IMG/VR virus record: IMGVR_UViG_3300017777_003723
Location: 2,752-66,751 of that record
Length of the DNA: 64,000 bases
Source of the DNA: a virus
Lineage: Duplodnaviria; Caudoviricetes
Reading direction: 5' to 3' (one strand)
Position 1 is the stretch's first letter; each line of letters begins with the position of its first letter. This document shows positions 2,625 to 61,616 of the stretch, piece after piece. The translations under genes and the position numbers were made by a program. A model generated the notes under the pieces. That model searched no databases. It was given only the letters and a program-made list of their open reading frames with translations, and was not told where the DNA came from.

Positions 2625-2636
2625 TGTAACGTTACA
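2625..2636. promoter_or_regulatory. Palindromic operator-like site TGTAACGTTACA (perfect)
   Basis: Within ATGTAACGTTACAT; 4 nt before ATG2641. Confidence 0.8.
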
Positions 2637-2640
2637 TCTA

Positions 2641-2838
2641 ATGCGAAACCACATCCTAACGTTTCCGCTCTCGCTACGACTGGCCGGTATGGGCTGGGTT
2701 ATGCGGCAGGGAATCTTCGACCGCGAGCTACTGGAAAGCCCAAGTGGGCAGACGTGGCTCATCACCAAACGGCCGGGTCGGTTCATCGCTGAGCCGGTGC
2801 GGTCATCCGACAAACGAAACGCAGCAAACGATAAATGA
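2641..2838 (+). CDS. Hypothetical protein (65 aa)
   Basis: ORF coupled to the next gene. Confidence 0.55.
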   Translation: MRNHILTFPLSLRLAGMGWVMRQGIFDRELLESPSGQTWLITKRPGRFIAEPVRSSDKRNAANDK

Positions 2839-3143
2839 TTATGGACATCAAACAACCCACCCCCTTGCCGCCGTTCAATGCGGACCTATCCGCATACGGT
2901 TATCCTGGCGACCAAACCAACGGCCAACGCGCCGACCGTGCAGAGGCCGTGTTCAAAGAATACAAGCGTCTGCTCGGGGACGTGCAGCCTCCGGACTCGA
3001 TGGACGTGCAAGACCTCCTGAGTGACATCATGCACTGGGCACACCGCGAAGGTTACGACCTCACGCTCGGCACCGGTGACATCGCTGAACTAAGCGAAAA
3101 CGCATACGAACATTTCCTGCATGAGTGCGGAGGTGACCAATGA
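2835..3143 (+). CDS. Hypothetical protein (102 aa)
   Basis: Coupled ORF; DLLSDIMHW motif seen in small phage proteins. Confidence 0.7.
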   Translation: MIMDIKQPTPLPPFNADLSAYGYPGDQTNGQRADRAEAVFKEYKRLLGDVQPPDSMDVQDLLSDIMHWAHREGYDLTLGTGDIAELSENAYEHFLHECGGDQ

Positions 3144-3328
3144 AACACCTCCCCATCCTGAAACCGGGGTCCATTGACTACCAGTTCACCGAGGACGTGA
3201 ACCGACGGCAACGTTGGCGACGCTTCGTTCGTGATGCGATTGCCATTGGTTGGCCTTTCATTGTTCCAATCGCAATCGCGATTGGATTCCTGCTCGGCTA
3301 CGTAGTCGGGATTTCTCACCACCACTGA
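3140..3328 (+). CDS. Small membrane protein (62 aa)
   Basis: C-terminal hydrophobic stretch AIAIGWPFIVPIAIAIGFLLGYVVGI. Confidence 0.65.
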   Translation: MKHLPILKPGSIDYQFTEDVNRRQRWRRFVRDAIAIGWPFIVPIAIAIGFLLGYVVGISHHH

Positions 3329-3344
3329 ACCACAAACCAAACGT

Positions 3345-4178
3345 ATGAATCGTATCACAACAAACCCGCTCGGCATTCCGGGCGAAGCGACAGAAGAGGT
3401 CGAGTGCGACTGCGACGACATGAAACCCGGAGACCGGGTCGTCATCATCGGAGAGTTCTGTGACGCCACTAAGACAATGGTGGTCCTGCCGGTTGCGACC
3501 ATGCTGGAGCCTCGTCTCTTCGACTTCAAGAATGGGGTCGCCACCGAGCAAGAGTTGGCCAACGTGATTCGGGAGAAGATTGTTGAATTCTTCCAGCGAA
3601 AGATTGGTTGTGAGCCACCAAAAGAGTTGGTTGACCGGATGTTCGACGCGACCTTGGAGAGATTCAAGGTGCGGCAGTTCCGGTTCGATGACGGCACCGT
3701 CATCAACGAGTCGGAGATCGCCACCATCGGGTCGGAGGCTTGCGCTGGGAGCAAGTTGGAGGCGATGAAGTCGCTACCTCCCGACCATAAGCTCCATGGT
3801 ACAAAGGTGGTTCGCATCACCGATGTTGCGGCGTGGATTGCGGTCAAGCGCAGCCCCATCGTGGGCCACGTTGGAGGGGTGGAAGAGGACGGAACGGTGG
3901 TGAAAGGCAGGCCCATCCACGCACTGGAAGACATCACCAAGTTGACGAAGCCCCAGTGGGTGGTGTCGGAGGTCGTGTTTCCGGATGTGGACCCGGCGAT
4001 AGTCACCACTACCAACTGCAGCAAGTGCGGCTGTGTTTGCTACCGTCACAGCAAAGAGTCGGTCGCGTTCATGGCGTTGCCGAGTGTCTGCGTCCCATGC
4101 TTCGATGCCATGGACTTGAAGGGAATCGTGGCCGAGAAGAGGGCCAAGCGAGAAGGCGCGGACTCCTTCAGCGCATGA
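3345..4178 (+). CDS. Hypothetical protein with C-terminal Cys cluster (277 aa)
   Basis: CSKCGCVC...CVPC possible zinc ribbon. Confidence 0.7.
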   Translation: MNRITTNPLGIPGEATEEVECDCDDMKPGDRVVIIGEFCDATKTMVVLPVATMLEPRLFDFKNGVATEQELANVIREKIVEFFQRKIGCEPPKELVDRMFDATLERFKVRQFRFDDGTVINESEIATIGSEACAGSKLEAMKSLPPDHKLHGTKVVRITDVAAWIAVKRSPIVGHVGGVEEDGTVVKGRPIHALEDITKLTKPQWVVSEVVFPDVDPAIVTTTNCSKCGCVCYRHSKESVAFMALPSVCVPCFDAMDLKGIVAEKRAKREGADSFSA

Positions 4179-4657: not shown

Positions 4658-4669
4658 TGTGACGTTACA
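4658..4669. promoter_or_regulatory. Operator-like site TGTGACGTTACA
   Basis: 1 mismatch to the consensus; intergenic, upstream of the AAA gene. Confidence 0.75.
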
Positions 4670-10321: not shown

Positions 10322-11311
10322 TCACTGGTTTTCTTCGTGACTCAAGTCGGCGTCCACCATCAATTCAATAAGCTCCTTGAAGCGGGTCTTGGGTTCCCAG
10401 CCTAGCTTTCCCTTCGCTTTTGAATAGTCACCTATCAACTGATTGACTTCGGTGGGACGAATGTATCGCGAATCAATCTCCACATGCGCCCTCCAGTCGA
10501 TGCCGACGCGCGAGAACGCCACATCCAAGCATTCCAGGATGCTATGGGTCTCGTTGGTAGCGACTACGTAGTCGTCCCCTTCGGGCTGTTGCAGCATCAG
10601 CCACATGGCCTCGACATATTCCTTGGCATAACCCCAGTCGCGCTTCGATTCTAGGTTGCCAAGCGCGAGCTTCTTCTGGAAGCCCAGCGCGATGCGTGCG
10701 GCTGCAAGCGTGATCTTCCGGGTCACGAACGTCTCACCGCGACGCGGGCTCTCATGGTTGAAGAGGATGCCGTTGCTGGCATGGATGCCATAGCTCTCGC
10801 GGTAATTCACCGTCGCCCAGTAAGCAAAAGCTTTGGCGCAGGCATACGGGCTCCGCGGATAGAACGGCGTCGTCTCCTTCTGCGGGACTTCCTGGACCAA
10901 GCCGAACATCTCGGACGAACTGGCTTGGTAGAAGCGCGGCCAGATGCCCACTAGACGGATGGCTTCCAGCAACCGGATGGTTCCGGTGGCGTTGATGTCG
11001 GTGGTGTATTCCGGCGCGTCAAAGCTATCCCGGACATGGCTCTGGGCCGCGAGGTTGTAGACTTCGTCCGGATGTATCTTGCCTAGAAGGCGCGTCAGGC
11101 TGCCCGTGTCGGACAGATCCCCGTGATGCAGATGCAGGTTGTGCTTCGGGTAATGCGAGCCGGAATAGATGCCGTCAAGCCGCGAGGTGTTGAGAGCAGA
11201 AGCGTGACGGATGATTCCGTGTACCTCATATCCCTTTTGCAAAAGTAGTTCTGCAAGATAGGAGCCATCCTGCCCATTGATGCCGGTGATGAGAGCTTTT
11301 TTGAGTGACAT
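10322..11311 (-). CDS. gmd: GDP-mannose 4,6-dehydratase
   Basis: [56 protein letters not shown]. Confidence 0.96.
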
Positions 11312-20600: not shown

Positions 20601-23119
20601 AGCTTCTTCGCCCCAGAGGTTGAGCCGTACACCGGCAACGCCACAAAAGGCAGGTCCGTGTTGCTCGGGTCGTGGAAGATGATGAACCGACGGGTGCTCT
20701 TGCTGGCCGCCCCGTCCTCGTTGGTCGCCCCGGCCATCATCGCCTGTGCGACTTCGTGGGTGTTCTGTTTCCAATCCTCGTAAGGCTTGGGCTTTCCGTC
20801 CTCGTCCAACTCACCGACCAGCGCGGCCACCGTGGACAACGCTGGCGTCTTGTCGTAGGTCTTTGACGGAATACTTTTCAGCTCACGCCTGAGCACTTCG
20901 AGTTCGTCTACAACGCGCTTGCGATACGCCGGGTCATCATTGACCGACTTTCTCTCCGCCTCGAACTTTCGCAGCTCAGACTCTTGGGCTGGAGAAAGCT
21001 CCGCCCCCTGGAGCTTGGCCTCCATCGCCCTCTCCACCTTCGGAGCGGCATCACTCAGTCCCAGGAGCCGCTCATATCGGGCAATGCGAGCGTTGATCTC
21101 CTTGGCTGCGTATTGCCCGTCCGGGAAGTCCAGCCCAAGCTTATCGCTGATGAGTGGACCTTGCTCTACCACGGGCGCATCGGTCTCCTCGGCGAGAGAG
21201 GGTGCGCCCTTGGCGATCTGACGAAGGCGTTGACGTTCCTGCTCCTCGTCGCCGGCACGCGCGGCCTTGAGGCGGGCCATCAGGTCGGACGACGGGGAGA
21301 ACTGGTCGGGAGCCTCGTCCTTTGGAGACGCCGCAACCTGTGCGCCACGACGCTCAGCCAGCCCGCCAAGGCGTCCGGCCGCAGAGGTGGTCACTTGACC
21401 ACGTCGCAACCTGACCGCGGCGTCCACGGGTGTCTCGCCTTCAGCCGGCACAGACTCGCTCAAGCCTTGGTCTGACTGTGACGTTACAGCGTTGGCGCGC
21501 GGAGAAGGAGCTTCCTGCGGCTCAGCTTGCGCCTCTGCCCGCACCGGCATTTCAGAACCCGGTTGCTCATTGGAGCCGGTGGTGGTTCCAGGAAGAAGTT
21601 TGGATGCAGCGGCGGCGGCCTTTTCACCCTGCCCTTGTGCCGCCTTCAGCGAGTTCTCCAGGTCGTCCAGCTTGGTGGCGTGCTCCGCGCGGGCACGCAT
21701 CTCCGGGATGTCGGAGGTGATGACTTTCTCGGAGGTGTCCCGGTGGAACACTGTTTCGACCGGGAACGGGAACTTACCGCCTTCGGACTGCTTCGCGTAG
21801 GCCGCACGAATCTCACCCTTGGACAGCGACGAACCGTGCGAGCGCGAGGTTGCCAACGCCAGCGCCACGTTCATCGCGGTGTGCTTCAACAGTTCCTCGG
21901 TCGGGTGCTCTGACGCCGCAATCTCAGGGGCGGCGTGAGCAAGAAGGAATGCGTTCGCGAGAAGCTGACCGCCGCTGAACTCAAGAGCCTTCTGCATGGT
22001 CTCGTCGTCCAGAAAACCGGGGTATCTCTTGCGGATTTCTGCGGTGACAAGTCCGGGGTGCCGCTCGAATGTTTCTAGCACCAACTTCCTGCCTCCAGTG
22101 ATAACGCTCGACACACCTTTCGCTGCGAGCTGCCGGCCGATTGAGTCGATAGCCGGAAGTACCAAAGCCACGAGCCCGGATTCCGCCGTAGCGTTAAGGT
22201 CGCCACCCGTGTCGTGGTATGCCTGCGCGGCCATGGGTGCAGCAAAGGCTGATGCGCCTGCGAGGTAGCTCAGCGCGGACGGAAGACCAGCCGTCAAAGC
22301 AGCGCCTTCGATTGCAGCGCCAGCAGGTGCAGCCAATGCCATCGGCAAAAGCACCTTGCCCACGGACTGGATCTCACTGATTCCCAAGTCTCTTTCCCTA
22401 GGAAGCTCATTGCCCTTCAGTGCCTCCCAAATCGGCACCTTGCCGCCCTCGCTCTCTGTCGGGACATACCCAGTGGGGTCGCCGCCCATCGGGTCAACCG
22501 CACCGGCCATGCCTTTTGCGAACATGCCCGCCAACGCACCCCCCACATTCCCGATGTAGTTGGCCGCCACGCCAGCCCCTTCAGCCACCCCCTCGTACGG
22601 GCTATTGGTCAGCAGCTTATCAACCTTCCGGGCCGCCATGTCGGTGTCCGTCTTTTGCGCGAGGATGGACAACCCGATCGGCAGCTTGCGGTCCGCGAAC
22701 CGGGCCACGTTGCCGCCCTCCATCGGGTAAGAGTTCTCCGGCATGTCCGCCGTCGAGAACTGGTCATCCGGCAGGTAGATCTTCCTGATCTCTGACTCGT
22801 GGTGGGGGACCGTGTAGTTCGGGGTGATGTCCCCGGCGTCGTATTCCCTCGCCTCAGCGGGAGAGATGCCCGGCATCCCGGTCTTCAACGCCTCAGCCAT
22901 CGCCACCTTGAACGGCGTGACCTCGGGCGCGGACTGGTTCCACTTCATCTGGGCCTTCAGCGCCAACCGCTGCGGCATGGCGTCGAAGTCCTGCCGAAAC
23001 TCAGGAACATCGAGGAACTCTGGGTGAGTCTCGCCGATGCGCTGCGTCAGGGCATCGTCGTCCAAAGCGGCGTATTCGCCCCCGAACGACTTGAAATAAT
23101 CGAGGACGTTGTTCGCCAT
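11642..23119 (-). CDS. Giant polyvalent virion/ejection-type protein (3825 aa) with kinase-like and HExxH domains
   Basis: Last of three ejection-like genes; FSL linkers; HELGH at ~18910-18925; kinase motifs at ~17270-17810; Arg/Gly-rich C-terminus. Confidence 0.85.
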   Translation of the reverse strand: MANNVLDYFKSFGGEYAALDDDALTQRIGETHPEFLDVPEFRQDFDAMPQRLALKAQMKWNQSAPEVTPFKVAMAEALKTGMPGISPAEAREYDAGDITPNYTVPHHESEIRKIYLPDDQFSTADMPENSYPMEGGNVARFADRKLPIGLSILAQKTDTDMAARKVDKLLTNSPYEGVAEGAGVAANYIGNVGGALAGMFAKGMAGAVDPMGGDPTGYVPTESEGGKVPIWEALKGNELPRERDLGISEIQSVGKVLLPMALAAPAGAAIEGAALTAGLPSALSYLAGASAFAAPMAAQAYHDTGGDLNATAESGLVALVLPAIDSIGRQLAAKGVSSVITGGRKLVLETFERHPGLVTAEIRKRYPGFLDDETMQKALEFSGGQLLANAFLLAHAAPEIAASEHPTEELLKHTAMNVALALATSRSHGSSLSKGEIRAAYAKQSEGGKFPFPVETVFHRDTSEKVITSDIPEMRARAEHATKLDDLENSLKAAQGQGEKAAAAASKLLPGTTTGSNEQPGSEMPVRAEAQAEPQEAPSPRANAVTSQSDQGLSESVPAEGETPVDAAVRLRRGQVTTSAAGRLGGLAERRGAQVAASPKDEAPDQFSPSSDLMARLKAARAGDEEQERQRLRQIAKGAPSLAEETDAPVVEQGPLISDKLGLDFPDGQYAAKEINARIARYERLLGLSDAAPKVERAMEAKLQGAELSPAQESELRKFEAERKSVNDDPAYRKRVVDELEVLRRELKSIPSKTYDKTPALSTVAALVGELDEDGKPKPYEDWKQNTHEVAQAMMAGATNEDGAASKSTRRFIIFHDPSNTDLPFVALPVYGSTSGAKKLGVSRKAQTMVPGAKASVGLANFLRENPEMEPVYAIRLNKGAEQVLPESKGRLTQEQMEALVTEAEARARQVGKSQETAAASADFEQSGGSVRDEAVRVRDSEAKQSVSKFGDEGDGSEDTGDLASRFFEKNRVTDLMAAWFLENDGDARDWLADNAPVARKLVNDFAKQIYDEHGVVLTARQTGLFARELYRHAEEVASDTEKYENTSRSGGAGKAGVPIIGGVLPASGEGHPRKPAAADAGGARVPGATQASPPAGSGGRGEASSGVSFSLERDNVRGKRMKELELEIAKTRDLIDQLDVPVSSNHLYNDLAVKVSSEDGATPTDDLVDDNALRIHEAISAATTPSSELGKSEYFGAKTYKIETDPLGMVRVTDSGGTAESNFVNFYDHLKIRYPDELAKLVSDLKKFDDSGAAVLAAKLGRLQGEYSDLYLESGGDARFSLGASGQPAFVPSNPVEPLAPGSSITESDVKAIQSLVELVGATGNERIAQNIQPSRATLSELGFPQELKDALETLWGARVIFVNQPEGPVFKAVHTSGNIFLSDHLKGGQIVLTAFGHELGHEIKSIAPELHKKLAKVFVAGLKSGEFQSMMGDVQRSADAAGVSGTDLDDEVVSDLLGEAFGDTSTFKKLAEKDPALFKKLADLVRDFLNRIINYFRQQGPSLRSRAKDYEKLQDQIVEILRDYSKKRTGSTLKERYASREPYTNEQRDPVTGAVAIPRGTQSGAVRGAAGAGKEGPAAAATVSRNREVQRRANEVVQRVLAAESRSSGGDWSKIVAQHGVHYAASEAVKRTLTGELSNIADPELRAAVEGFREFVPLWNAAKAKEFFEHPLSTLINDWDKRITDAETVENSGGTKFKGKPFADELHSLLQTSGAFKHLNDPNAQYDLKDITNWLYDLSKKGSDPVLGSIIAGTILQHPAYKRAFKARGERLGGGTEAEAFLVGDQVYKVVRLSLSLGDLSKKVGFDDPNDSLQFFDGGGVALPITQRASDSSNLPGVTPTQVVAMLSDGKFIVRQPLAGDPMNDLGAMHGRKIDMTPKGREQMFQKWADENGYKRVHVPTPFGGDVFEHMYFTRLPDGTVVALADVNERNVAVGPDGKLSVYDPIIHRVGTNEALKPMVSMFDAGGGTFYKAKLPSPDSLAPRKPATEAASKPANLKRAIGKQSFSFSLDRLDQIGPEAVSDATEIARMGSDKVEALKSGAAALDGMAYNRKQYRQAVSMLNRLWEKAKDEAIIRDIKPEKIAGPTDSKFLATLKALGVAHDPANTQAMQEAVQFERSAATHNRLAGRARTLGSLIEMLTEMGGYDAVITEHEQALVKVRAKLKKLGVHEHGGQSVADRSSEMWFAELAKPDAEAKRRALSIPEVHDNFVGPMAAFNALLEEFPDLAHSDWTTKLGMPENDGLTNRLFIAVNSVLQQFDHAKANLKNRRSVEEAAKRGPLNELLSGARDSSMAGSYAELVLADAGRAMAGEQGLTGDVVSAQHVQWVKENGSAVTRFATRLAEVVDAAPDPAIGTPSANAAHEAGKRILEWLREPVGDAPLLPMQGQSGAFGVSDPTLDTIFKLVASHDTFREAVAALVDDARGDIPMDRLAEIATAASAGKKKEAKALFKTLVKAKLSEQKRMTAQATSQMREAADIKADLDALGLGDNLFDSVAASPAFKQIRNLSENGLFGFLKPMVATEANVKTASESKVTLKAFALNDVLDQPAVSIETDRMESPTFAEKSITSIKEWQESAEHYVDGYDSALRDFTSGISGLTPTDLGYDTPTYRGLKLALLRDVPTLNDDSSTPGDDATTKAPSWVQSALNSVAFIGQIDQVATNLGGIIGAWSRAKVADYRNIRGDILNISGKDRFLGVEMPRLRSAALASHPELGGNMDLYRTRVQNPAGTIGRQFGSTLKVGLLLPSGVKVTTEDMAWYRRQLEYSRAILQRVQYRPDQATRVTTTAGDVLTRKAGSVGDFDFTRIVSQEGEDASTDLAKMADEPAIDTSTDLTASSTNKTVAFWNARAERNDALTWHVLDSQRDDLALKKDAVMRRTERALASDIEAGGYVQKFKSVGELVDALVAKFPAGTGLSPREHIIRELGQELKGYANMARVRKQLSAVEDTSILSQVESLNRESEFNKPAGLLELPSVFYDMGSLTNGDIQGLQMRAVAPAELEMAKGLVQALHELKVRLSVVEPGDRVGDKSALPHGWTVHQLKMVVSALEQLNTNLMKKPSKAYWPVRAMMAPIHLAVRGFLMAPKVGIRNITQGQMAHYQLQSMLNDFGRKGALIRTLQSITGIIGKHVTRVFASIPGLQQPVRWLKKHHPAAYKATLQWAESLYRKWIQNGIDEQRDLGFGNKSNVLEPILKAWRESAEFENHQDATAFSFVPRKVRVGIRRALRVPGGALTGVESKIGLAGGPDPELNAEVLGTFRRAESTLKEAAIKHGDRIAAGGAASKTVVPEDFSTRMVESDRLNHVADFREMLQMAGIPLEHALKDYYQRSAGGTNKDEPFFGGELGDEWARSLKRVMIGYVNAPTGTNRAEAIKTDRTLAAMFTLRGYIMDQTGKFTGLFRTAKGVNKPSAKLYQGFASAMMLALAAFLIGVTTHETTGRIDRHILRVVGKMIPSDKDFWTQQGFAKRAVTEMAMNLTMFGDVVMTILQVQQGGKGFDVASKALPITLAVETIRAFSGFFTMPKEDWDVIVKGLVDRFAGPVGDIRTALGFNPSKQNAGGVIGFKEVNTIANPQNVQKARGDFSWGPTTGMKMKLTEALFTAEKAKQGADPVAYANAMAEARSQHDRLVGYYKNERGMNDVAANAAARRDFSAMNPATRANGGKVMTPAEYQNASAMLSGDRKQAWDTTLAAWQLGASMFPDQSGDDVDTSPARERKVAGTSSGSSGSSGSSGSSRGGSVNLRRGPGRGGVAASQYSNLSFAASSSGQSASAATPAASVRLRRGGGRSSRRLAGARSTSRNRARGARVSVRRGGGRRGRRRGRR
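11913..11948. repeat. 9-bp tandem repeat (GAACTCCCG)x4
   Basis: Encodes SSG repeats in the giant protein's tail. Confidence 0.9.
21477..21488. promoter_or_regulatory. Operator-like site TGTGACGTTACA (intragenic)
   Basis: 1 mismatch; lies in GACTGTGACGTTACAG, identical to the portal copy. Confidence 0.55.
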
Positions 23120-25048: not shown

Positions 25049-25060
25049 TGTAACGCGACA
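25049..25060. promoter_or_regulatory. Degenerate operator-like site TGTAACGCGACA
   Basis: 2 mismatches; intergenic, upstream of the ejection genes. Confidence 0.5.
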
Positions 25061-35629: not shown

Positions 35630-35642
35630 CTGCAAGGTGCTT

Positions 35643-38828: not shown

Positions 38829-38840
38829 TGTAACGTTACA
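38829..38840. promoter_or_regulatory. Operator-like site TGTAACGTTACA (perfect)
   Basis: Intergenic, upstream of the scaffold gene. Confidence 0.8.
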
Positions 38841-38848: not shown

Positions 38849-39469
38849 TCAGTCACGAAGCTTGATGACGATGCCCCCGCTGTTGTAGTGGAGCCTCGCG
38901 TACCACTGATAGGCGTGGGTGGAGAACCACTCGGCGACCGCGCGCTGTACATCGTCTCCGTTGTAGTCGTCCACGAAGATGAACTTGGGGTCGGCGGTTG
39001 CAGCCAACTTCATGTCGGCCAATGCGTTCTCGTAGTCATGGGCCGCATCCACCACCACGAAGTCGGTGGCCGGAAGCTCCTTGAGGTCGCGGAGGTTCTG
39101 GATGCGAAGATGAGGGGTAGCAAAATGGCGCTTCTTCATCAGCTTCACGAAGACCCGGTACGGTTCCCACAACGCCCCGTCCGGCGTGGTGGCCGATTCA
39201 AACGTGTCGATCCCCGTGTAACTCGCACCGCTGGCGGATATGTAGGCGTCGGCAGCGGAGCCAGCACGGCAACCAAGCTCGATCATCGAAGCCGGCATAA
39301 GCGTCTTGGCCACCGCCCAGAAGCTCCGATACTTCTGCGTGAACTGCTCCTGGTTCTTTCGGTAGAACTCGCTGTCGTATTGCGTGAAGACGCTGTGCAG
39401 GTCGTCAGGCCGCCATTGGCACTGTTCCAGGTTCAGGTTGAACTCCGATTGAAACGCAGCTTTGGTCAT
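38849..39469 (-). CDS. Class I SAM-dependent methyltransferase (Methyltransf_24-like)
   Basis: IELGCRAG, YTGID, VVDAAHDYENALAD, FVDDY. Confidence 0.85.
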   Translation of the reverse strand: MTKAAFQSEFNLNLEQCQWRPDDLHSVFTQYDSEFYRKNQEQFTQKYRSFWAVAKTLMPASMIELGCRAGSAADAYISASGASYTGIDTFESATTPDGALWEPYRVFVKLMKKRHFATPHLRIQNLRDLKELPATDFVVVDAAHDYENALADMKLAATADPKFIFVDDYNGDDVQRAVAEWFSTHAYQWYARLHYNSGGIVIKLRD

Positions 39470-39852
39470 GGCCTGAAGGCAAGTTTACGGAACAGCATCT
39501 CAACGTCGGTGCCGGTGGCAGAGCTGAAGAAGTCGAGCATCGAGACGGCAGCCAAGTAGCGGCTCGCCTCATGGGCGTTGTCCATGGACTCATCCTCATG
39601 TCCAGACTGGCCCCCCCCCATGATAGAGATGTCGCTGCACCTCTCGGCCCCGGCCGTGGCTATCCTGACTTGGTAGTGGGCCTCAAGCACCGAACGGAAC
39701 ATCTGACCCGGTCGCAGGGTCAACCATTGCTGGATCTCCTTGACCTCCGCCGGGGTAAGCGGCTCCAGCCGCAATGCCGGCTGCAGGGTTGAGTGGCGCT
39801 TCCTGCTGGAAGCCTCCGGCATCACTTGCTCCTGCTGTTCCTGGTCCGCCAT
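39466..39852 (-). CDS. Small post-portal protein (128 aa), overlapping the portal 3' end
   Basis: Coupled to the methyltransferase start; its own start is uncertain. Confidence 0.6.
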   Translation of the reverse strand: MADQEQQEQVMPEASSRKRHSTLQPALRLEPLTPAEVKEIQQWLTLRPGQMFRSVLEAHYQVRIATAGAERCSDISIMGGGQSGHEDESMDNAHEASRYLAAVSMLDFFSSATGTDVEMLFRKLAFRP

Positions 39853-42822: not shown

Positions 42823-42834
42823 TGTATCGTTACA
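42823..42834. promoter_or_regulatory. Operator-like site TGTATCGTTACA
   Basis: 1 mismatch; intergenic. Confidence 0.75.
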
Positions 42835-52072: not shown

Positions 52073-52969
52073 TTACAGTTTTACACTTGAATTAAAGCTA
52101 ATCCTAAATGTGGTTGAGCTTAGGGCCAAGCCAACGGGCACGATGTAGCCGACGCTGGGGGCGAAGGGAGTGATTGCCCCCGTGGAGGTGAGAAAGTAGA
52201 TCTGCCCTGGAGCGAGACCGCCCACCATCCCGGTCGCGTCGCCCCAAGCCAGCGCTGGCATGGTCAGGTTCAAGTCGGTCTGGACCCGACCGGCAACGCC
52301 CTGAAGGAGAGTGTCTTCGTATAGGAGACCAATCGGGACATTGTACGGTGAAGCATTGGTGGCCCTTCGCAGTTGGCCCGCAATCAAGCAGACGGCCATC
52401 CCCATCGTGAGTGTGCCGGGGTGGTCTGAGACATAGCTGACAGTCCTATCGGGTTCAGTCGAACCCTTCCTGATTAGACGGCCAGAAAGTGTATCCAGTG
52501 CGATTGAGTCCGAATCGTCAGCCGGGAAAGTTGAGTCCTGGTCGTAGAGAAACCACCCTCGATTAAAGACATCCCCAACGAGTGTGTTGTCTATGTAATA
52601 GAGAGTGTCGTGGTGGAGATTCACCGCCGCCTTCGCTGCGGGCCGGCTTGGTTGGTATTCGTTCGCTGGAAGGACACCGTTCCACTCCCCTTCGTTCGGG
52701 CCGTTCTCGAAGTGGTCAACGCGACTTACCGCGCCGCTACGGGTGATGTATTGCGCGAGATAGATGTAGGCTGGTTGGTCCGGGGAACTAATCGCGAGCG
52801 CCAGCATGTCCGACTTACGGACAGTGATGTACCTGGTGGAGTTGTTCGGGAGCGTCACCACGCCTCCCTGGTAATGGTAATCGCCCGACGGGAAGCTCAC
52901 GACGAATGGAGCAATCTCGACTTTAAGCGTCCCGACAATCGGGTTTGTTTTGAATACCTTGTCTTGCAC
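52073..52969 (-). CDS. Virion structural protein (298 aa)
   Basis: C-terminal GL.PG..Y.L...G...AP...VG.A.S domain shared with the 579-aa protein. Confidence 0.75.
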   Translation of the reverse strand: MQDKVFKTNPIVGTLKVEIAPFVVSFPSGDYHYQGGVVTLPNNSTRYITVRKSDMLALAISSPDQPAYIYLAQYITRSGAVSRVDHFENGPNEGEWNGVLPANEYQPSRPAAKAAVNLHHDTLYYIDNTLVGDVFNRGWFLYDQDSTFPADDSDSIALDTLSGRLIRKGSTEPDRTVSYVSDHPGTLTMGMAVCLIAGQLRRATNASPYNVPIGLLYEDTLLQGVAGRVQTDLNLTMPALAWGDATGMVGGLAPGQIYFLTSTGAITPFAPSVGYIVPVGLALSSTTFRISFNSSVKL

Positions 52970-53275: not shown

Positions 53276-53287
53276 TGTAACGTTACA
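53276..53287. promoter_or_regulatory. Operator-like site TGTAACGTTACA (perfect)
   Basis: Centre of the divergent late-operon/terminase gap. Confidence 0.82.
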
Positions 53288-53316: not shown

Positions 53317-54885
53317 ATGCCAACCACCGAATCAGGGCTATGGGTGCCAAATTTGTCGCCCAAGCAGATGGATGTCTATAACTGCAAGGACCGCTATGTC
53401 CTGGTCACAGGGCCACGCCTGACCGGAAAGACCGTCCCCACCATGCACCGGCTCATCAGCCATGCCTGGGAGACGCCGGACGCACGGATCGGGATGTTCA
53501 CCAAGACCATCAAGGCCGGCAAAGGCGGCGTCTGGTCCGACCTGACCGGCTTCACCATGCGGGAGTGGCTGGATGCCGGCCTGGTGGCGGAGGATGGCAA
53601 GGACTTCGGCTACACGAAGCAGCCTGGAGAGGACAAGAACCGACCAGCCGGCCCACGCATCGACGGCTCCACCCGGATGCACTACTTCACGATGCGTAAC
53701 TACTGGGGAGGCGAGTCCCGCATCGAGCTGCACTCATTGGACTTCGACGACGACATCGCCGAGAAGCTGCTCAACACCCGGTTCTCGTGCATCTACTTCG
53801 CGGAGTTGCAGAACTTCCACTCCCGCTCCGTGTTCGACCTATCCATCCAGCAGCTGCGGAACTACGGCCTCCCCTACGAGTGCCACCAATGGATCAGCGA
53901 CACCAACCCGCCCGAGGAGGGCATCGACCATTTCGCCTACGAGATCTGGTATCGAGAACGAGTGATGGAGTCGTTCCCGGAGTATTGCCGGAACGACGAC
54001 GACCGCACCCGGTTCCGTCGCCGTCAGGCCGGGCTCAAGCTTTTCGAGTTCGGGTTTGAAGACAACCCGTTCGTTGACCCGCAGCAGATCGCGGACCTCA
54101 AAGCCACCTATTGGGGGAAGGCTGACGAGTACGACCGGTTCGTGCTCGGGAAGTGGACGAAGACCGGTAGGTCGGGTCGATGGTTCCCAGGGTTCAAGAC
54201 CGAACTCCATGTCGTCGGACAGTGCGAAGGGTCGGACCCGGATCATTGGGACTACCTGAACCCGTCCCCCAAGACCTCCACCCTCTACTGCGGATTCGAC
54301 ACCGGCCAGGTCAACCACGCCGCCGTCATCATGCAGAAGCGCATCGGCAAGGATGGCGATGTCCACTGGGACGTTATCGACGAGCTGGTGTCGCTGAAAG
54401 AGGACATGCTGCTCGTCGAGTTTGCTGAACTCTTCGTCGAGAAGATGGATTCACTGGAGGCCCACCTTGGCAGGAAGATCCGGTGGGTGAGCTGGTCGGA
54501 CAGTTCCCTTGAGGCGTTCCGTTCCACCAGCCCTCAGACCGAAGCGGCCATCGTGGAGGGGGCTAGCAACAACCGGCTCAGCCTTCAGTTTGCCTACGAG
54601 GCCAAAAGCCCCAACGCCATGAGGAAGCGGCTGCAGCTTGTGGCGTCGATGGTCTCCGAGAATCGCATCCACGTCTCGGCCCATTGCACCTACGCCGCCC
54701 AGATGTTCCGTGAGCTGTGCCGGCCGAACAACCGGAACACCAACCTGCTCATCCCTCGCGGCGAACCCAACAAGCACATCTGGGACGCCATCAGCTACGT
54801 CATCTACTCAGAGATGGCAGCAGACGTTGGAGGGAGTTCTCCCGACGAAGGGAAGCGCCCGCAGATCTTTGAGGTGGAGATTTGA
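53317..54885 (+). CDS. terL: Terminase large subunit
   Basis: LSPKQ adenine motif, Walker A GPRLTGKT, Walker B variant IYFAEL, DTNP coupling motif, nuclease CGFDTG and WDAISY. Confidence 0.88.
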   Translation: MPTTESGLWVPNLSPKQMDVYNCKDRYVLVTGPRLTGKTVPTMHRLISHAWETPDARIGMFTKTIKAGKGGVWSDLTGFTMREWLDAGLVAEDGKDFGYTKQPGEDKNRPAGPRIDGSTRMHYFTMRNYWGGESRIELHSLDFDDDIAEKLLNTRFSCIYFAELQNFHSRSVFDLSIQQLRNYGLPYECHQWISDTNPPEEGIDHFAYEIWYRERVMESFPEYCRNDDDRTRFRRRQAGLKLFEFGFEDNPFVDPQQIADLKATYWGKADEYDRFVLGKWTKTGRSGRWFPGFKTELHVVGQCEGSDPDHWDYLNPSPKTSTLYCGFDTGQVNHAAVIMQKRIGKDGDVHWDVIDELVSLKEDMLLVEFAELFVEKMDSLEAHLGRKIRWVSWSDSSLEAFRSTSPQTEAAIVEGASNNRLSLQFAYEAKSPNAMRKRLQLVASMVSENRIHVSAHCTYAAQMFRELCRPNNRNTNLLIPRGEPNKHIWDAISYVIYSEMAADVGGSSPDEGKRPQIFEVEI

Positions 54886-54888
54886 AAG

Positions 54889-54965
54889 TGGGAGCAGGGG
54901 TCGGATTTGAACCGACGGCCTCCGCGTTATGAGCGCGACGATCTGCCAGACTGATCTACCCTGCC
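54889..54965 (-). tRNA. tRNA with CAT anticodon (Met/fMet-like), CCA encoded
   Basis: GGCAGGG TA GATC AGTCTGGCA GATC G TCGCG CTCATAA CGCGG AGGCC GTCGG TTCAAAT CCGAC CCCTGCT C CCA folds into a complete cloverleaf. Confidence 0.93.
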
Positions 54966-54973: not shown

Positions 54974-54985
54974 TGTAACGTTACA
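54974..54985. promoter_or_regulatory. Operator-like site TGTAACGTTACA (perfect)
   Basis: Within GTGTAACGTTACAC; 8 nt upstream of the tRNA 5' end. Confidence 0.8.
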
Positions 54986-54996: not shown

Positions 54997-55326
54997 TCAA
55001 TCCCTCATGTTCCTTGCCCCGTCGGTGAGCAGCTTCTCGAACATCAGCTCGTAGCGCGCGGACGCGGACCAGTGGGCCTTCTTCTTGTGTCGGAGGTAGC
55101 GCACCGCGTTCTTTGGGTGCATCAGGTCCACTCCACAGGCTGAGGCGAACGCGAACGCGGCGCACACCTTCATCCCGCACCAGGTCGCCCGTCGCGAGAC
55201 CCGGTCCACCATCCGGACGCTCATGCCGGCCTTCTTGGCGATCTCCTCGCGGGTCAGCGGATGCCGTCCGCGGTGAGCGAAAGCCCGGCACATGAACGGC
55301 GGGAACTTGTCGAGCGGGGTCTTCAT
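54997..55326 (-). CDS. HTH (XRE-like) protein (109 aa)
   Basis: LTREEIAKKAGMSVRMVDRV. Confidence 0.75.
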   Translation of the reverse strand: MKTPLDKFPPFMCRAFAHRGRHPLTREEIAKKAGMSVRMVDRVSRRATWCGMKVCAAFAFASACGVDLMHPKNAVRYLRHKKKAHWSASARYELMFEKLLTDGARNMRD

Positions 55327-56492: not shown

Positions 56493-56504
56493 TGTAACGC
56501 AACA
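56493..56504. promoter_or_regulatory. Degenerate operator-like site TGTAACGCAACA
   Basis: 2 mismatches; abuts start codon 56491. Confidence 0.5.
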
Positions 56505-56573: not shown

Positions 56574-56585
56574 TGTAACGCTACA
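56574..56585. promoter_or_regulatory. Operator-like site TGTAACGCTACA
   Basis: 1 mismatch; inside the putative attP, upstream of int. Confidence 0.65.
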
Positions 56586-56725: not shown

Positions 56726-58033
56726 ATGAAATCCTCACCTTTAGGAACGAAACCTCAAACAACGCCGGACGGTAGACCGGCCCCACTGCGCGGAGACAAT
56801 GTTTTTGTAAAGGCACTCGACGGCAGGAGACGGCCCATCCGTGGGCTCTGGGTCCGCAACGGACGGTACTACGCACAGCTCTCGGTCATGGACCACGCAC
56901 TGGGCAAACCCAGGGCCAAGCGCATCGCGTTGAAGGACGCCAGCACTGTCGCTGAGGCGGTGGTGGCGATGCAGGACGTGATGAAGCTCCGTCGCGACGG
57001 CGAGCTAGCTATGTCAGCGAAGGCCCCGACGTTCTCGGTTGCGGCCGATCACTACCTGGAGTTCGAGGCGTCACTCCACGACGGTAAGCGAGAGAGCACT
57101 CTAAAAGGGGAGCGGAAGTGTGTCCGCTCGTTGAAAACCAGCTTTGGCGGGTTCACGCTGGACCGCATCACCCCAGCCGCGGTCAAGGCACACATGGGCC
57201 GCCGGCAGTCCGTGGACAAGGTCTGCGGCAGAACGGTGAACCACGAGTTGGTCATCCTTGGGAACGTGGTCAAGCACGCGGAGACCGTCTTCGGCGTCAA
57301 GGTGAGGCCGCTAGATGGGGTGAAGCGCCTACCCTACAAAGCTGACAAGAAGCCTCTCACCGACGACGAGGAGATTGACGCATTGAGGGGTTGGTCGATT
57401 GGCCATCTAAAGAACGGCCACCTCTTGTCCGATTTCGTGGGGTTCTTGGCGGCGACCGGTGCCCGTCGATCGGAGGGGCTGCTCGTGGCGTGGGCGGATG
57501 TGGACATGGAACTGAAGCGCGTCCTGATCGGCGGTTACCGGAGGAGCAAAAACGGCGATACCCGATGGGTGGACATGAGCCCATCATTGGAGGGACTGCT
57601 CGTGGAGATGGCGTCCCGGAAAGACCCGGAGAGCAAGTGGTTGTTCCCGTCAGCGATGGCTGGAGCCGCGGAGGACATTCCAGCCAAATGCCTGGAGCAT
57701 TCGTTCAGAACGGCGCGCGTCGCCACCGGCGCGAAGCGCGTCACCGGGTTCCACGCCATGCGCCACTACTTCGCGAGCAAGTGCGTCATGGCCGGCATCG
57801 ACTACATGACCATCGCGGCGTGGCTAGGGCACAAGGACGGCGGCATCCTCGTCGGCAAGGTCTATGGTCACCTGAACAACAGCCACCGGCAGAAAATGGC
57901 GGCTAAGCTGGGGGCTTATACCAATGCGGAAAAAATATCGACCGCAATCGAGTCAGCCGATCTTCGGCCCGCCACGATGACCCCCGATGGCGCGTCCTCA
58001 AAACCGAAAGCGACAGCCGCTTCCGGTTTGTAA
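56726..58033 (+). CDS. int: Tyrosine recombinase/integrase
   Basis: TGARRSE, RSKNG, FHAMRHYF, LGH, VYGH catalytic set; N-terminal IRGLWVRNGRYYAQL. Confidence 0.95.
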   Translation: MKSSPLGTKPQTTPDGRPAPLRGDNVFVKALDGRRRPIRGLWVRNGRYYAQLSVMDHALGKPRAKRIALKDASTVAEAVVAMQDVMKLRRDGELAMSAKAPTFSVAADHYLEFEASLHDGKRESTLKGERKCVRSLKTSFGGFTLDRITPAAVKAHMGRRQSVDKVCGRTVNHELVILGNVVKHAETVFGVKVRPLDGVKRLPYKADKKPLTDDEEIDALRGWSIGHLKNGHLLSDFVGFLAATGARRSEGLLVAWADVDMELKRVLIGGYRRSKNGDTRWVDMSPSLEGLLVEMASRKDPESKWLFPSAMAGAAEDIPAKCLEHSFRTARVATGAKRVTGFHAMRHYFASKCVMAGIDYMTIAAWLGHKDGGILVGKVYGHLNNSHRQKMAAKLGAYTNAEKISTAIESADLRPATMTPDGASSKPKATAASGL

Positions 58034-58380
58034 GCCTGCAAGTCGTTCATCGACCGATTCAGGTCATCAGTGATGACCGTTAGGCACGCCTTTTTGACGC
58101 GCTGAACAGCAACAATCACGGGTTCGATGGCGGCATTGTCCAGCCTCTTGGTGAGGATGAGCACAATGCCGCTTTTGCCGTTCTTGAGCCCGCGAGCGCT
58201 CAAGCTGGGGACATAGCCGATCCTGTCGGCGACCTCGCGGATCTCGTCGGCCGTCTCTTGAGACAGGCCAGGCTGGTGGTTGATCGCCAGCGAGCAGGAC
58301 ATCGCGGACCATCCACTCTTCTCAGCCAAATCCTTAATGGTGACTCTTTTACCTCCAGGGGGTTTGATTTTTCTGGTCAT
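57916..58380 (-). CDS. Truncated LacI-family transcriptional regulator (154 aa)
   Basis: VTIKDLAEKSGWSAMSCSLAIN HTH and GYVPSLSARGL hinge; ligand domain only ~85 aa. Confidence 0.9.
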   Translation of the reverse strand: MTRKIKPPGGKRVTIKDLAEKSGWSAMSCSLAINHQPGLSQETADEIREVADRIGYVPSLSARGLKNGKSGIVLILTKRLDNAAIEPVIVAVQRVKKACLTVITDDLNRSMNDLQAYKPEAAVAFGFEDAPSGVIVAGRRSADSIAVDIFSALV

Positions 58381-58658
58381 GGCTTGGCCTGTTCAGGTAC
58401 TCCATCTGGTGTACCCATGTTTTTGATCAGCCTCCGGCGCATAGCGGTCTGGAATTTTAGCGCAGAAGTGGCGCGTTTACCGGCCATCGTGTCCAGCACC
58501 GTCGGCAAAAACAGCATCAACGACTCGATGACCAAGGTGGACCTCGACGCCCCGGTCGCTTCCTCGGCGAGCCTGAGAAGTTCCTCAACGTCAGGTTTTA
58601 AGCGGACTCCAACGAACGAAAGCGTGGGCGCTTTCTGCTGATTTGGTTTTTTTTTCAA
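58377..58658 (-). CDS. Ribbon-helix-helix (CopG/Arc-like) regulator
   Basis: FVGVRLKPDVEELL...GASRSTLVIESL. Confidence 0.78.
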   Translation of the reverse strand: MKKKPNQQKAPTLSFVGVRLKPDVEELLRLAEEATGASRSTLVIESLMLFLPTVLDTMAGKRATSALKFQTAMRRRLIKNMGTPDGVPEQAKP

Positions 58659-58826
58659 CTGGTTTCCTTTCGGTTTTTCCTGCGATTCACGCAGCTATTT
58701 ATGCCTTGGGCGTAAATCTGTTAAACCCAATCCAGTGGCGCGTCAACCGTTTTACCTTGTTGCAGAATTTATTTTGGTTAACTTTTTGGCGTCGCAGGAA
58801 AACCACCACTCGTCCCCTTTGTCACA

Positions 58827-59354: not shown

Positions 59355-59569
59355 CACCAAAGCCCTCCGTGAACCTTCTCCTCCCGCTCGTTCCGATGAT
59401 GCGCTGGAACACTTGGCTCAAGTGCATCGGCGTCGGGCACCGGACCGGGGCCATGTGGCGGGCCAAGGGGTGGGTGCGGCCGGACCGGGTCATCAACAGC
59501 CGCAACTACATCTCCGCCGCCGCGGTGGAGTCCTTCGCCAAATCCGTCGAAGCTGGAAAATTCAAGTGA
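59351..59569 (+). CDS. Excisionase/MerR-like HTH protein
   Basis: WLKCIGVGHRTGAMWRAKGWVRP...YISAAAVESF; near int. Confidence 0.65.
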   Translation: MTPKPSVNLLLPLVPMMRWNTWLKCIGVGHRTGAMWRAKGWVRPDRVINSRNYISAAAVESFAKSVEAGKFK

Positions 59570-59630
59570 CCCCCTCCCGTCCGCGCAGAGGGGCCAAGTG
59601 GCCCTAGATCTGCCCGACTCTGCCGTTTTC

Positions 59631-59642
59631 TGTAACGTTACA
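59631..59642. promoter_or_regulatory. Operator-like site TGTAACGTTACA (perfect)
   Basis: 24 nt before ATG59667. Confidence 0.8.
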
Positions 59643-59666
59643 CATCCACGACAACACCCACTAAAA

Positions 59667-60737
59667 ATGCACGAAATCGCCGAAATTGAGATTGATGCGG
59701 TAGTCCCGGACGCGCTTGCCGTCATGGAGCGCGCCGCCATCGACAGCCAAGTTTCCACCGCCAAGAAGTACCCGCGGTCGCTGTCCATGGTGAAGGCCAA
59801 GATGCTGAGTTTTGCCACTCTTGACCAAGAGACCGCGTCGGGCTGTTTCTTCACCCTGCCGGCGCGCAAAGGTGGAGACGGCAAATCCATCCAAGGGCCG
59901 TCCATCCGAATGGCTGAGATTGCGCTGGCCACCTACCAGAACCTCCGCGCTGGAGCCCGCGTCATCGCCGACGACGGCAAGATCATCACGGCTCAGGGCG
60001 TCTGCCACGATCTGGAGAACAACGTGAGCATCTCCGTCGAGGTGAAGCGCCGCGTCACCACGAAGGAAGGCCGCAGGTTCAGCGACGACATGGTCGTGAT
60101 GACCGGAAACGCGGCGTGCTCCATCGCGCTCCGGAACGCCACGTTCAGAGTCGTGCCTTTGGCCTTGGTGAAGCCAGTCTACGAGCAGGCCAAGAAGGTT
60201 GCCATCGGAGACGCGAAGACGCTGGTGTCTCGCCGAGCGGATGCGTTGGCCCACTTCACCAAGATGGGCGTGAAGAAGGAGCAAGTGTTCGCCGTGCTTG
60301 GCGTCAATGCTCTGGAAGACATCACCCTCGACCACCTTGCAGAACTCATCGGTTACGCGACCGCCATCAAGGAAGGCGACACCAGCATCGACGAGGTTTT
60401 CTCGAAGGAGGCCAAGCCCCTGCCTCCATTCCTGGCTCCGGTTCCCTCTCCTGCCGTTGAACCTGCGGCAAAGGCGGCAGACGCCATGCAGTTCATCGCG
60501 CCTCCCCCCTCCGAGGCTCCGAAGAACGAGGTGATGGTCCAACTCGCCGGCCACATGCTCAAGGATGGGGTGACGGAGGCCGAGTTGATGCAGCACATCC
60601 AGACCGGCTACGCCGACTGCGATAGCCTCGGGAGCCTTGATGAAGTCAACGAGGTCAAGCCGAGCGTCATCAACTCGGTGCTCCGCAAATGGTCCCTCGT
60701 CGTCAAGGCGATCAAGACCCCGAAAGCCTCCGAATGA
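59667..60737 (+). CDS. Putative single-strand annealing/recombination protein
   Basis: TAKKYPR, GPSIRMAE, DLENN and GNAACSIALRNA motifs; adjacent to the exonuclease and SSB. Confidence 0.7.
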   Translation: MHEIAEIEIDAVVPDALAVMERAAIDSQVSTAKKYPRSLSMVKAKMLSFATLDQETASGCFFTLPARKGGDGKSIQGPSIRMAEIALATYQNLRAGARVIADDGKIITAQGVCHDLENNVSISVEVKRRVTTKEGRRFSDDMVVMTGNAACSIALRNATFRVVPLALVKPVYEQAKKVAIGDAKTLVSRRADALAHFTKMGVKKEQVFAVLGVNALEDITLDHLAELIGYATAIKEGDTSIDEVFSKEAKPLPPFLAPVPSPAVEPAAKAADAMQFIAPPPSEAPKNEVMVQLAGHMLKDGVTEAELMQHIQTGYADCDSLGSLDEVNEVKPSVINSVLRKWSLVVKAIKTPKASE

Positions 60738-61609
60738 GTGCCATCCCGTTCACCACTGGATCGGACGGAGTCTTCTACGACGTTCCATCGGCCGACTACT
60801 TCGCCGAGCCGGCGCTGAGCCACTCGTTGATGAAGGAGATGTCTCCGACCCCGGCGCATGGGTTGGCCTACATGCTGACGTACAGGGAGCCGAAGCCCGC
60901 CCACATCATCGGGACGTTGACACACAGCCTCATCCTTGAGCCTGAGAAGCCGCTTCCCGGCATCGCCCTCCAACCAGAGGAGTACCCTGACGGGAAGACC
61001 ACGAAGAAGTGGAGCGGCAACGCCACCTACTGCCGTGACTGGAAGAAGGAGCAGTTGAGCAAAGGTCTCATCGTGCTACCAAAGACCGGCAGGGACAGCT
61101 ACGAGGAGATTGTCGGGATGTCCCAGGCAGCGTCACGCCACCCACTCGTCCGTGAGTACCTATCGGAAGGCACCAGCGAGGTCAGCTTGTTCACCCACCT
61201 CAACACCACCTACGGTCCGGTTCGCGGAAAAGGCCGGCTGGACTTCGTGCCGAAGTCGAAGCGGCTCATCGACTTCAAGACAACGCAGGACGCCAGCGAA
61301 GAGGAGTTCTCAAAGGCGCTCGTGAACTTCCGCTACGCCTCTCAGGCGGCGTGGTATCTCAACCTCTGGGACCGCTTGTGCGGGTCTGAGGATAAACGCA
61401 GCGAGTTCGTGTTCTTCGCCATCGAGAAGACCCCCCCTTACCTGGTGGCGGCCTACACACTGGATGAGGAGGCACTGCGTTGGGGTTACTCCCTGTGCCT
61501 GACGGACATGGACACCTACGCCAAGTGCAGTCGGGACGGAGTATGGCCAGGCTACCCGCAAAATCTGCGGAAGCTCAGCCTGCCGGGTTTTATGAAACGC
61601 AAACTGTAA
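60734..61609 (+). CDS. PD-(D/E)XK exonuclease (RecE/DUF3799-like)
   Basis: KGRLDF, IDFKTT, YASQAAWY, FFAIEKTPPY. Confidence 0.88.
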   Translation: MSAIPFTTGSDGVFYDVPSADYFAEPALSHSLMKEMSPTPAHGLAYMLTYREPKPAHIIGTLTHSLILEPEKPLPGIALQPEEYPDGKTTKKWSGNATYCRDWKKEQLSKGLIVLPKTGRDSYEEIVGMSQAASRHPLVREYLSEGTSEVSLFTHLNTTYGPVRGKGRLDFVPKSKRLIDFKTTQDASEEEFSKALVNFRYASQAAWYLNLWDRLCGSEDKRSEFVFFAIEKTPPYLVAAYTLDEEALRWGYSLCLTDMDTYAKCSRDGVWPGYPQNLRKLSLPGFMKRKL

Positions 61610-61616
61610 CGTTACA
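61605..61616. promoter_or_regulatory. Operator-like site TGTAACGTTACA (perfect)
   Basis: Contains the exonuclease TAA stop and abuts the SSB ATG. Confidence 0.82.

Follow-up and report, generated by a model that had tools for sequence, protein, structure and literature searches.

A dispersed 12-nucleotide palindrome as the candidate operator of a truncated LacI-family protein in a freshwater temperate phage

Which protein reads a short palindrome that recurs, one copy at a time, over 59 kb of a phage genome? The question is raised by a stretch of 64,000 nucleotides (nt), bases 2752 to 66751 of the 66,751-bp IMG/VR virus record IMGVR_UViG_3300017777_003723 (this whole stretch is termed the window, and positions below are those of the window), in which a first-pass annotation had listed 17 exact or near copies of the 12-nt palindrome TGTAACGTTACA and had named a small LacI-like protein of the phage, the mini-LacI, as their simplest reader. 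All 17 coordinates and sequences proved to be correct. We propose that the 17 palindromes are probably operators for a dimer of this truncated LacI-family protein (57916 to 58380, minus strand), which appears to be the best candidate. We favor it because of what we observed, namely, the enrichment of the motif and its placement, the LacI-type head and LacI-like hinge of the protein, the form of the operator, and the covariation of gene and motif among relatives.

We first evaluated the motif against dinucleotide shuffles of the window. TGTAACGTTACA was found 15 times with at most one mismatch, versus 0.01 copies expected (the earlier estimate was fewer than 0.1), and 17 times with at most two mismatches, versus 0.77 expected. 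The degenerate pattern TGTNNCGNNACA recovered exactly those 17 sites (1.08 expected), and therefore the TGT and ACA arms and the central CG are invariant, with variation only at positions 4 to 5 and 8 to 9. When every possible 12-mer palindrome was scanned at one mismatch or less, TGTAACGTTACA ranked first with its 15 copies, the maximum in 100 dinucleotide shuffles being 7. The remaining 2,751 bases of the record contain no further site at this threshold; a two-mismatch copy at record base 859, outside the window (TTTAACGATACA), has the invariant TGT arm broken and is probably not a working site.

We then looked into the positioning of the sites relative to the genes. With generous open reading frame (ORF) calls, under which 94% of the genome is coding, 13 of the 17 sites were at least half noncoding (binomial P = 2e-13). 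Two others (35564 and 59631) are covered only by non-ATG 5' extensions of ORFs and lie 9 and 24 nt upstream of in-frame ATGs, which together accounts for the 15 of 17 sites previously assigned to gene boundaries; sites 21477 and 40083 are truly intragenic. The sites, listed without strand, and the terminator that lies among them are as follows (aa, amino acids; HTH, helix-turn-helix; SSB, single-stranded DNA-binding protein).

2625-2636: perfect site, between the stop of 2325-2621 (3 nt away) and ATG 2641 (4 nt away)
4658-4669: TGTGACGTTACA, in a 570-nt gap before a 531-aa AAA-ATPase-like gene, 79 nt before ATG 4749
21477-21488: TGTGACGTTACA, inside a 3825-aa virion-protein ORF
25049-25060: TGTAACGCGACA, two mismatches, 4 nt after the stop of 25065-25319 (minus) and 26 nt before ATG 25022 (minus)
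29893-29904: TGTATCGTTACA, its TAA being the stop of 29900-32341 (minus), 3 nt before ATG 29889 (minus)
35564-35575: TGTAGCGTTACA, directly past the capsid terminator, with the in-frame ATG of 35126-35596 (minus) 9 nt further on
35602-35631, minus strand: strong intrinsic terminator following the putative capsid gene, with a stem of 12 bp and a T run, motif sites lying on both sides
35643-35654: TGTGACGTTACA, 2 nt past the stop codon of the putative major capsid gene (570 aa)
37405-37416: TGTGACGTTACA, 35 nt before the capsid ATG 37369 (minus) and 9 nt after the stop of 37426-38796
38829-38840: perfect site, 32 nt before ATG 38796 (minus) and 8 nt after the stop of 38849-39469
40083-40094: TGTGACGTTACA, inside an 814-aa ORF, 39683-42127 (minus)
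42823-42834: TGTATCGTTACA, 59 nt before ATG 42763 (minus)
53276-53287: perfect site, where the late operon (ATG 53239, minus) and the terminase gene (ATG 53317, plus; 29 nt from the site) diverge
54974-54985: perfect site, 11 nt after the stop of a 109-aa HTH gene and 8 nt before the tRNA-Met 5' end
56493-56504: TGTAACGCAACA, two mismatches, 1 nt before ATG 56491 (minus)
56574-56585: TGTAACGCTACA, 140 nt upstream of the integrase ATG 56726 (plus)
59631-59642: perfect site, 24 nt ahead of ATG 59667, which starts the gene (phrog_3657) preceding the exonuclease gene
61605-61616: perfect site, its TAA being the stop of the exonuclease gene 60689-61609, abutting ATG 61617 of an SSB-like gene

Several finer features of this layout reported by the first-pass annotation were also recovered. 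The TAA of the motif serves as a stop codon at 61605 and 29893, and only 0, 1, 3, and 4 nt separate the motif from an ATG at 61605, 56493, 29893, and 2625, respectively; another group of sites is found 24 to 36 nt before start codons. The 570-aa gene is bracketed by sites 35643 and 37405, its identity as the capsid gene being a language-model lead, and the terminator next to it is the only strong intrinsic terminator of the late block. Sites are indeed present in the divergent terminase/late gap (53276) and in front of the tRNA-Met (54974). The closest pairs are 79 to 81 bp apart.

What kind of element is recognized? Isolated TGTAAC half-sites were not enriched in the window (8 observed versus 7.6 expected), which rules out a half-site or monomer reading, and neither the inner AACGTT nor other subwords were enriched outside the 17 sites. 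As RNA, the 12-mer would form a hairpin of 0 to -1.8 kcal/mol, which is negligible and rules out a reading based on RNA structure. The site flanks held no further common conserved sequence and no conserved -35 or -10 partner, and no sigma-70-type promoter was seen at the sites, with the proviso that the sigma-70 consensus may not be that of the host. A manual tally of the sense orientation of the variant half of the sites gave no significant bias (7 to 8 versus 3). Since half-sites and subwords are not enriched, the RNA does not fold, the flanks are plain, and sigma-70 promoters were not seen, the functional unit is the complete DNA palindrome, which points to a dimeric DNA-binding protein and not to an element acting as RNA, a word for methylation, or a promoter made up of separate boxes.

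We then analyzed the candidate reader and its surroundings, the lysogeny module, in which the mini-LacI gene lies beside the integrase gene (RHH, ribbon-helix-helix).

56726-58033, plus strand: tyrosine integrase
57916-58380, minus strand: 154-aa mini-LacI, with a LacI HTH (residues 14 to 59), the hinge SLSARGLK, and one alpha/beta subdomain
58377-58658, minus strand: 93-aa RHH/CopG-like gene, cotranscribed with the mini-LacI gene (ATGA overlap); the RHH features and fold are leads

The 154-aa protein matched the LacI HTH family (PF00356) with 31.5 bits, versus a Pfam cutoff of 27 (33.6 bits in the six-frame search), and it is the only LacI HTH in the six frames of the record. Its HTH and hinge align to those of solved LacI-family regulators (SLSARGLK versus AARSL). 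An AlphaFold2 (AF2) model (pLDDT 77) has a three-helix head, a hinge helix, and one four-strand alpha/beta subdomain, and its best fold matches are DNA-bound LacI, CcpA, RbsR, and PurR; the modeled hinge helix (residues 60 to 66) is short and of low confidence, as expected without DNA. In the family, a Leu of this helix inserts at the central CpG. The effector domain of the family (∼270 aa, two subdomains) is absent, as ∼85 residues follow the hinge and no Peripla_BP match was obtained in them. Because this domain is missing, we do not file the mini-LacI as a canonical LacI/GalR member, and its sequence indicates a truncated LacI derivative instead. The palindrome itself has the form expected for such a head: a survey of LacI-family regulators reported even palindromes for 1,251 of 1,303 of them and a central CG for 1,173 (PMC4052901), i.e., ∼90% of the family motifs, which upholds the previous use of the central CG as a sign of LacI/GalR operators.

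The RHH and mini-LacI genes are read leftward from a divergent gap (58659 to 58826), next to the integrase gene, and this is the classical immunity position. The integrase ORF (plus) and the mini-LacI ORF (minus) converge with a 118-nt overlap at 57916 to 58033; the overlap of the two genes is 4 nt in the related fragment L012 described below.

Proteins of the same type were found elsewhere. An exhaustive HMMER search recovered mini-LacI relatives of ∼150 aa in Logan or ENA assemblies (P0004, P0006, P0020, P0078, and P0051), and these, like the homolog from L012, all pass the Pfam cutoff for the LacI HTH. The contigs coding for P0004 and P0051 measure 29 and 21 kb, and a 71-kb contig codes for the identical protein. 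In IMG/VR, no close relative was obtained for the mini-LacI of this phage or for P0004, the L012 protein matched only itself, and a word-indexed protein search with the mini-LacI likewise returned only itself. In the open-access literature, we found no description of a LacI-type phage repressor with dispersed operators.

To follow motif and gene together, we used relatives obtained from capsid and terminase searches, which left three informative genomes, namely, this phage, G001, and L012; the terminase-based scans retrieved G001 alone from the metagenome collection and had no match in the genome collection. G001 (66,278 bp; completeness estimate, 83%) is collinear with our phage over 66 kb, with 75% identity for the capsid protein and 78% for the terminase. 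Hardly anything separates its integrase gene from the first rightward gene, both the mini-LacI gene and the RHH gene are absent, and no LacI HTH was detected in any frame. G001 contains no copy of TGTAACGTTACA at one mismatch or less and no outlier palindrome of any kind (the top count, 3, equals that of shuffles). Looser matching revealed relics with two or three mismatches at homologous boundaries, each of which breaks the TGT, the CG, or the ACA.

TGTAACGATGTA: corresponds to window site 25049
TGTATCGTTACG: upstream of the homolog of the 349-aa gene 28840-29889, aligned to window site 29893
AGTGACGATACA: corresponds to window site 35564
TGTGACGTTGCA: upstream of the capsid gene, aligned to window site 37405
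CGTAAAGATACA: terminase gap, corresponds to window site 53276
TGTAACGGCAAA: before the homolog of the gene at ATG 59667, corresponds to window site 59631

G001 matches with up to three mismatches were not above chance in number (15 versus 13.6), and 10 of the 15 were intergenic (P = 1e-4).

L012 is a 16.9-kb fragment, the terminase of which is 58% identical to ours. It carries a mini-LacI gene directly after the integrase gene, the product being 32% identical to the mini-LacI of the window and above the Pfam cutoff. The top 12-mer palindrome of L012 is TGTAGCGCTACA, with 4 sites at one mismatch or less, a count reached in 6 of 300 shuffles. TGTAGCGCTACA differs from TGTAACGTTACA by the same change in both half-sites, such that the symmetry is kept, and just 19 of the 4,096 possible 12-mer palindromes are as close to TGTAACGTTACA. 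One L012 site lies 26 nt before the terminase ATG, one lies in the gap upstream of the integrase gene, and two lie before the homolog of the gene that precedes the exonuclease gene; these places are those of window sites 53276, 56493/56574, and 59631. In a three-way alignment of the terminase gap, the window motif, the L012 TGTAGCGCTACA, and the G001 relic CGTAAAGATACA are in register, 26 to 30 nt before the ATG. Our phage has, beyond the places occupied in L012, 9 to 10 sites spread over the late block and a single one ahead of the tRNA, and the three control points of L012 look like a core regulon. The simplest reading of these comparisons would be that the network is ancestral, that it is kept sharp where a mini-LacI is present and shifts with that protein, and that it decays upon loss of the gene.

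G001 has sequence repeats of its own. It is rich in CTGTAA (90 on both strands versus ∼54 expected), a word that has TGTAA in common with the half-site of the palindrome, and it contains an inverted pair, CACTGTAATT-N6-AATTACAGTG, at 52777 to 52802. The 8-mer CTGTAATT is present in 21 copies in G001, mostly intragenic, and just once in our phage.

Several proteins other than the mini-LacI could account for the sites. The cotranscribed 93-aa RHH/CopG-like protein might read them, alone or together with the mini-LacI, which we consider unlikely. RHH dimers are able to recognize short palindromes centered on CG, as exemplified by the MetJ met-box AGACGTCT, and the gene, whose RHH-like features and fold are leads, forms one operon with the mini-LacI gene and is missing from G001 along with the intact motif. 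Against this, L012 combines a related palindrome with a mini-LacI, no RHH homolog detectable by tblastn, and no leftward gene upstream of the mini-LacI gene. The adjoining switch gap, moreover, contains no copy of the motif, as noted before, and carries a different element, a perfect 11-nt inverted repeat, TTTTCCTGCGA at 58675 to 58685 and TCGCAGGAAAA at 58792 to 58802, with one arm 16 nt upstream of the RHH gene start and the other 24 nt upstream of that of the first rightward gene. The two arms, which differ from the 12-mer, may be switch operators or leader elements common to both genes, and they would be a more natural target for the RHH protein. Two further genes do not track the motif: G001 and L012 both retain the 109-aa HTH gene (54997 to 55326), and G001 retains the first rightward gene (78 aa). 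Little credence can be given, too, to a host regulator, of the LacI family or another, that would read the sites and tie the phage to host physiology, the mini-LacI then being a competitor or unrelated. The motif does have the general form of LacI-family operators, but intact sites occur only in the two mini-LacI-encoding phages and are decayed in the collinear G001, and the motif change in L012 goes along with a diverged phage protein. The variant suggested previously, a host LacI protein linked to sugar status, is weakened by the same covariation and by the lack of a sugar-binding domain in the mini-LacI.

The motif could also be a promoter element, read by a phage sigma factor, an activator, or a virion RNA polymerase and giving transcripts with short leaders or none. 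A start codon follows many of the sites after 0 to 36 nt, site 35564 stands between a terminator and a gene that begins 9 nt further on, another site precedes the tRNA by 8 nt, and no sigma-70-type promoters were seen nearby; in addition, the putative capsid protein is crAss/SU10-like, and phage-specific transcription is known in this group. We nevertheless find this improbable, given that the motif is perfectly symmetric with flanks lacking a -35 or -10 partner, that its spacing to the ATG ranges from 0 to 140 nt, that some sites are at gene 3' ends or inside ORFs, and that G001 keeps the same genes while the sites decay. No sigma-70 r2 or r4 domain was found in six frames, a search that may overlook divergent factors, nor was any RNA polymerase family detected, the large ORFs being without a Pfam family. 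Finally, a nonregulatory role in DNA transactions (as replication iterons, in partition or condensation, as a hotspot of recombination, or as a target of methylation or restriction) is, in our estimation, very improbable. The phage does encode a DNA methyltransferase, and a pair-pattern scan of IMG/VR returned nine unrelated contigs, some with tight clusters and others with variant words or tandem repeats; none of the nine is a relative, and none has a mini-LacI in the DNA examined. Tight arrays of TGTAACGTTACA and GTTACA half-sites occur in L023 (4680 to 4810), L024 (2950 to 3080), L017 (7785 to 7896), and L018 (5820 to 5930), those of L023 and L024 being inside ORFs, and the L023 ORF resembles a replisome organizer in its N-terminal sequence, as judged by eye. 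These arrays look like origin iterons, and the same word is therefore used by other DNA-binding systems. In our phage, on the contrary, the sites are single and dispersed, with no iteron cluster, and submotifs are not enriched outside them; ParB_N (PF02195) gave no match at an E value of 1 or less in six frames, while positive controls matched; and the methyltransferase gene has no homolog in L012, which has the related motif.

The assignment of the sites to the mini-LacI must be weighed against several points. Its recognition helix (SAMSCSLAIN) is atypical, it has Leu at what we take to be the position of LacI Arg22, and most of the usual dimer interface (C-subdomain) is missing. Only three genomes are informative, and the RHH gene is also absent from G001, such that L012 alone separates RHH from mini-LacI. 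Given the 83% completeness of G001, a relocated mini-LacI gene may exist there, although it is missing at the syntenic place. At site 29893, 11 of the 12 bases are kept in G001 though the flanks have diverged, which could mean that a second or other reader exists. No site was found near the promoter of the mini-LacI itself or in the switch gap, whereas most local LacI regulators autoregulate (PMC4052901), and the conserved core of 12 bp is shorter than the 16 to 22 bp usual for operators of the family (PMC4052901). We considered sequencing runs as assembled contigs only, and we gave no weight to their depth, to uncovered parts, or to contigs that end near sites. Parts of both the early and the late regions are represented among the RNA-library contigs, and because one of these contigs spans site 61605, transcription may pass this site in some conditions at least; contigs cannot show strand or state.

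We propose the following mechanism for the mini-LacI. A dimer would sit on the palindrome, each HTH reading one TGTAAC half-site, and the hinge helices would insert at the central CpG, as in PurR, LacI, and CcpA. A few sites, namely, those in the gap where the late and terminase genes diverge, in the gap by the integrase gene, and at the start of the recombination genes, would act as conventional operators at control points. At boundaries within the long late operon and before the tRNA, the sites would act as roadblocks to elongation or as local repressors; roadblocking at such operon-internal boundaries is plausible because LacI-family proteins bound downstream of promoters block elongation, as do PurR at purB, CcpA at internal cre sites, and LacI at O2. 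Together, the bound sites would hold the lytic genes off in the lysogen or set when they are expressed. As the mini-LacI has no sugar-binding domain or effector pocket, occupancy would depend on the amount of the protein or on a protein antagonist rather than on a small molecule, and release would require a fall in that amount or such an antagonist. Here, we infer binding and dimerization, infer repression and roadblocking from the placement of the sites, and regard the direction (repression or activation) and the stage (lysogeny or timing) of control in the same way.

How does this arrangement compare with known systems? In L5 and other Cluster A phages, one phage repressor acts at ∼20 to 30 genome-wide sites, mostly in short intergenic gaps and unlinked to promoters, a few being true operators, and the motif coevolves with the repressor among relatives (PMC6550527, PMC9283540). 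The present phage resembles them by its many dispersed sites (17, of which 13 to 15 are at gene boundaries) with no sigma-70-like promoter, and differs by symmetric 12-bp palindromes and a LacI-type candidate reader, to which the L5 repressor is unrelated. The label of stoperator, suggested in the first-pass annotation, therefore fits the layout only: stoperators of L5 have 13 bp, lack symmetry, follow the direction of transcription, and are occupied by a repressor monomer (PMC6550527), whereas the present sites are symmetric. With LacI, PurR, CcpA, and RbsR, the system shares an HTH, followed by a candidate hinge helix, and an even palindromic operator with a central CG. It differs from LacI/GalR regulators by a protein of 154 aa without the ∼270-aa effector domain, about one subdomain being kept, and by 17 targets in a 67-kb phage, many of them 0 to 36 nt from starts, whereas family operators are usually 30 to 140 nt upstream (PMC4052901). 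As with KorB and its OB operators in the IncP plasmid RK2, one palindromic operator recurs throughout a mobile genome and forms a lattice of global control, but here there is no ParB_N domain, the sites are unevenly spaced and concentrated at boundaries, and the candidate reader is of the LacI type. Phage P1 C1 and Streptomyces phage phiC31 likewise use a single immunity repressor with many dispersed operators in separate operons, the operators being asymmetric 17-mers in P1 and 17-bp inverted repeats in phiC31; the repressor families differ from that of the present phage. Overall, the layout is closest to Cluster A stoperators and the chemistry is LacI-like.

As for the phage itself, the record (completeness estimate, 88%) has near-identical copies in freshwater metagenomes from several studies, and its gene content indicates a temperate tailed phage. 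In addition to the integrase, the SSB-like protein, and the methyltransferase, a DnaB N-terminal domain is encoded at the end of the window, and a leftward structural block of 43 kb includes the 3825-aa ORF. The nearest language-model clusters of the 570-aa protein (35657 to 37369, minus) are major capsid proteins of the crAss/SU10 type, a lead as to its identity. A 4.6-kb stretch had no match among GenBank phages by blastn. The other features referred to above, and one at the junction of the early and structural blocks, are as follows.

10322-11311, minus strand: full-length GDP-mannose 4,6-dehydratase (Pfam E value = 1e-139), at the early/structural block junction
53317-54885, plus strand: terminase-like gene (weak PHROG match)
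54889-54965, minus strand: tRNA-Met
60689-61609, plus strand: exonuclease gene

Further observations concern these surroundings. The 813-aa ORF 29900-32341 (minus) has glycosyltransferase matches. Two similar GC-rich hairpins in the early region (112 to 142 and 1798 to 1823), the stems of which open with GGCGGCATCTGG and close with GGTGCCGCC, have a terminator-like score. Contigs from DNA run X6 match only to 54894 or 54935 within the tRNA-Met and continue into unrelated sequence, a break that could be an att junction or a host tRNA; attP may thus be located in the tRNA rather than in the 56.5-kb gap proposed earlier. Because Shine-Dalgarno sequences are rare across the gene starts of the window and leaders are A/C rich (e.g., CAACCAACCAAAGGACAAA-ATG), the sequence points to a host with Shine-Dalgarno-independent initiation. 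A capsid-based genome scan gave one 11.7-kb contig of a metagenome-assembled genome labeled Bdellovibrionota, which we rejected as too weak to point to a host; that contig contains neither an immunity region nor an outlier palindrome.

Distributed networks of a single repressor are best known from actinophages, with their stoperators, and from a few model phages. Here, the same layout is found on another scaffold, a LacI head without a sensor domain, in an uncultured freshwater phage lineage, and the combination of a stoperator-like layout with sites that are palindromic and of the LacI type suggests a new form of phage-wide single-operator control. More tentatively, we put forward a small family of LacI-derived proteins of ∼150 aa (HTH, hinge, and one subdomain, but no effector pocket) that may serve as genome-wide silencers of temperate phages, each lineage having a private 12-bp boundary palindrome that sometimes doubles as a stop codon and a network that decays upon gene loss; the crAss/SU10-capsid-type freshwater temperate phage described here would then offer an independent, symmetric-site counterpart of the actinophage stoperators. 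If our proposal is true, LacI-type DNA-binding heads would be reusable as effector-independent phage silencers, the 12-bp operators TGTAACGTTACA and TGTAGCGCTACA with their small repressors would be natural orthogonal pairs for study or as genetic parts, and these phages would provide a clear case of a regulator and its operator network changing together, including decay after gene loss.

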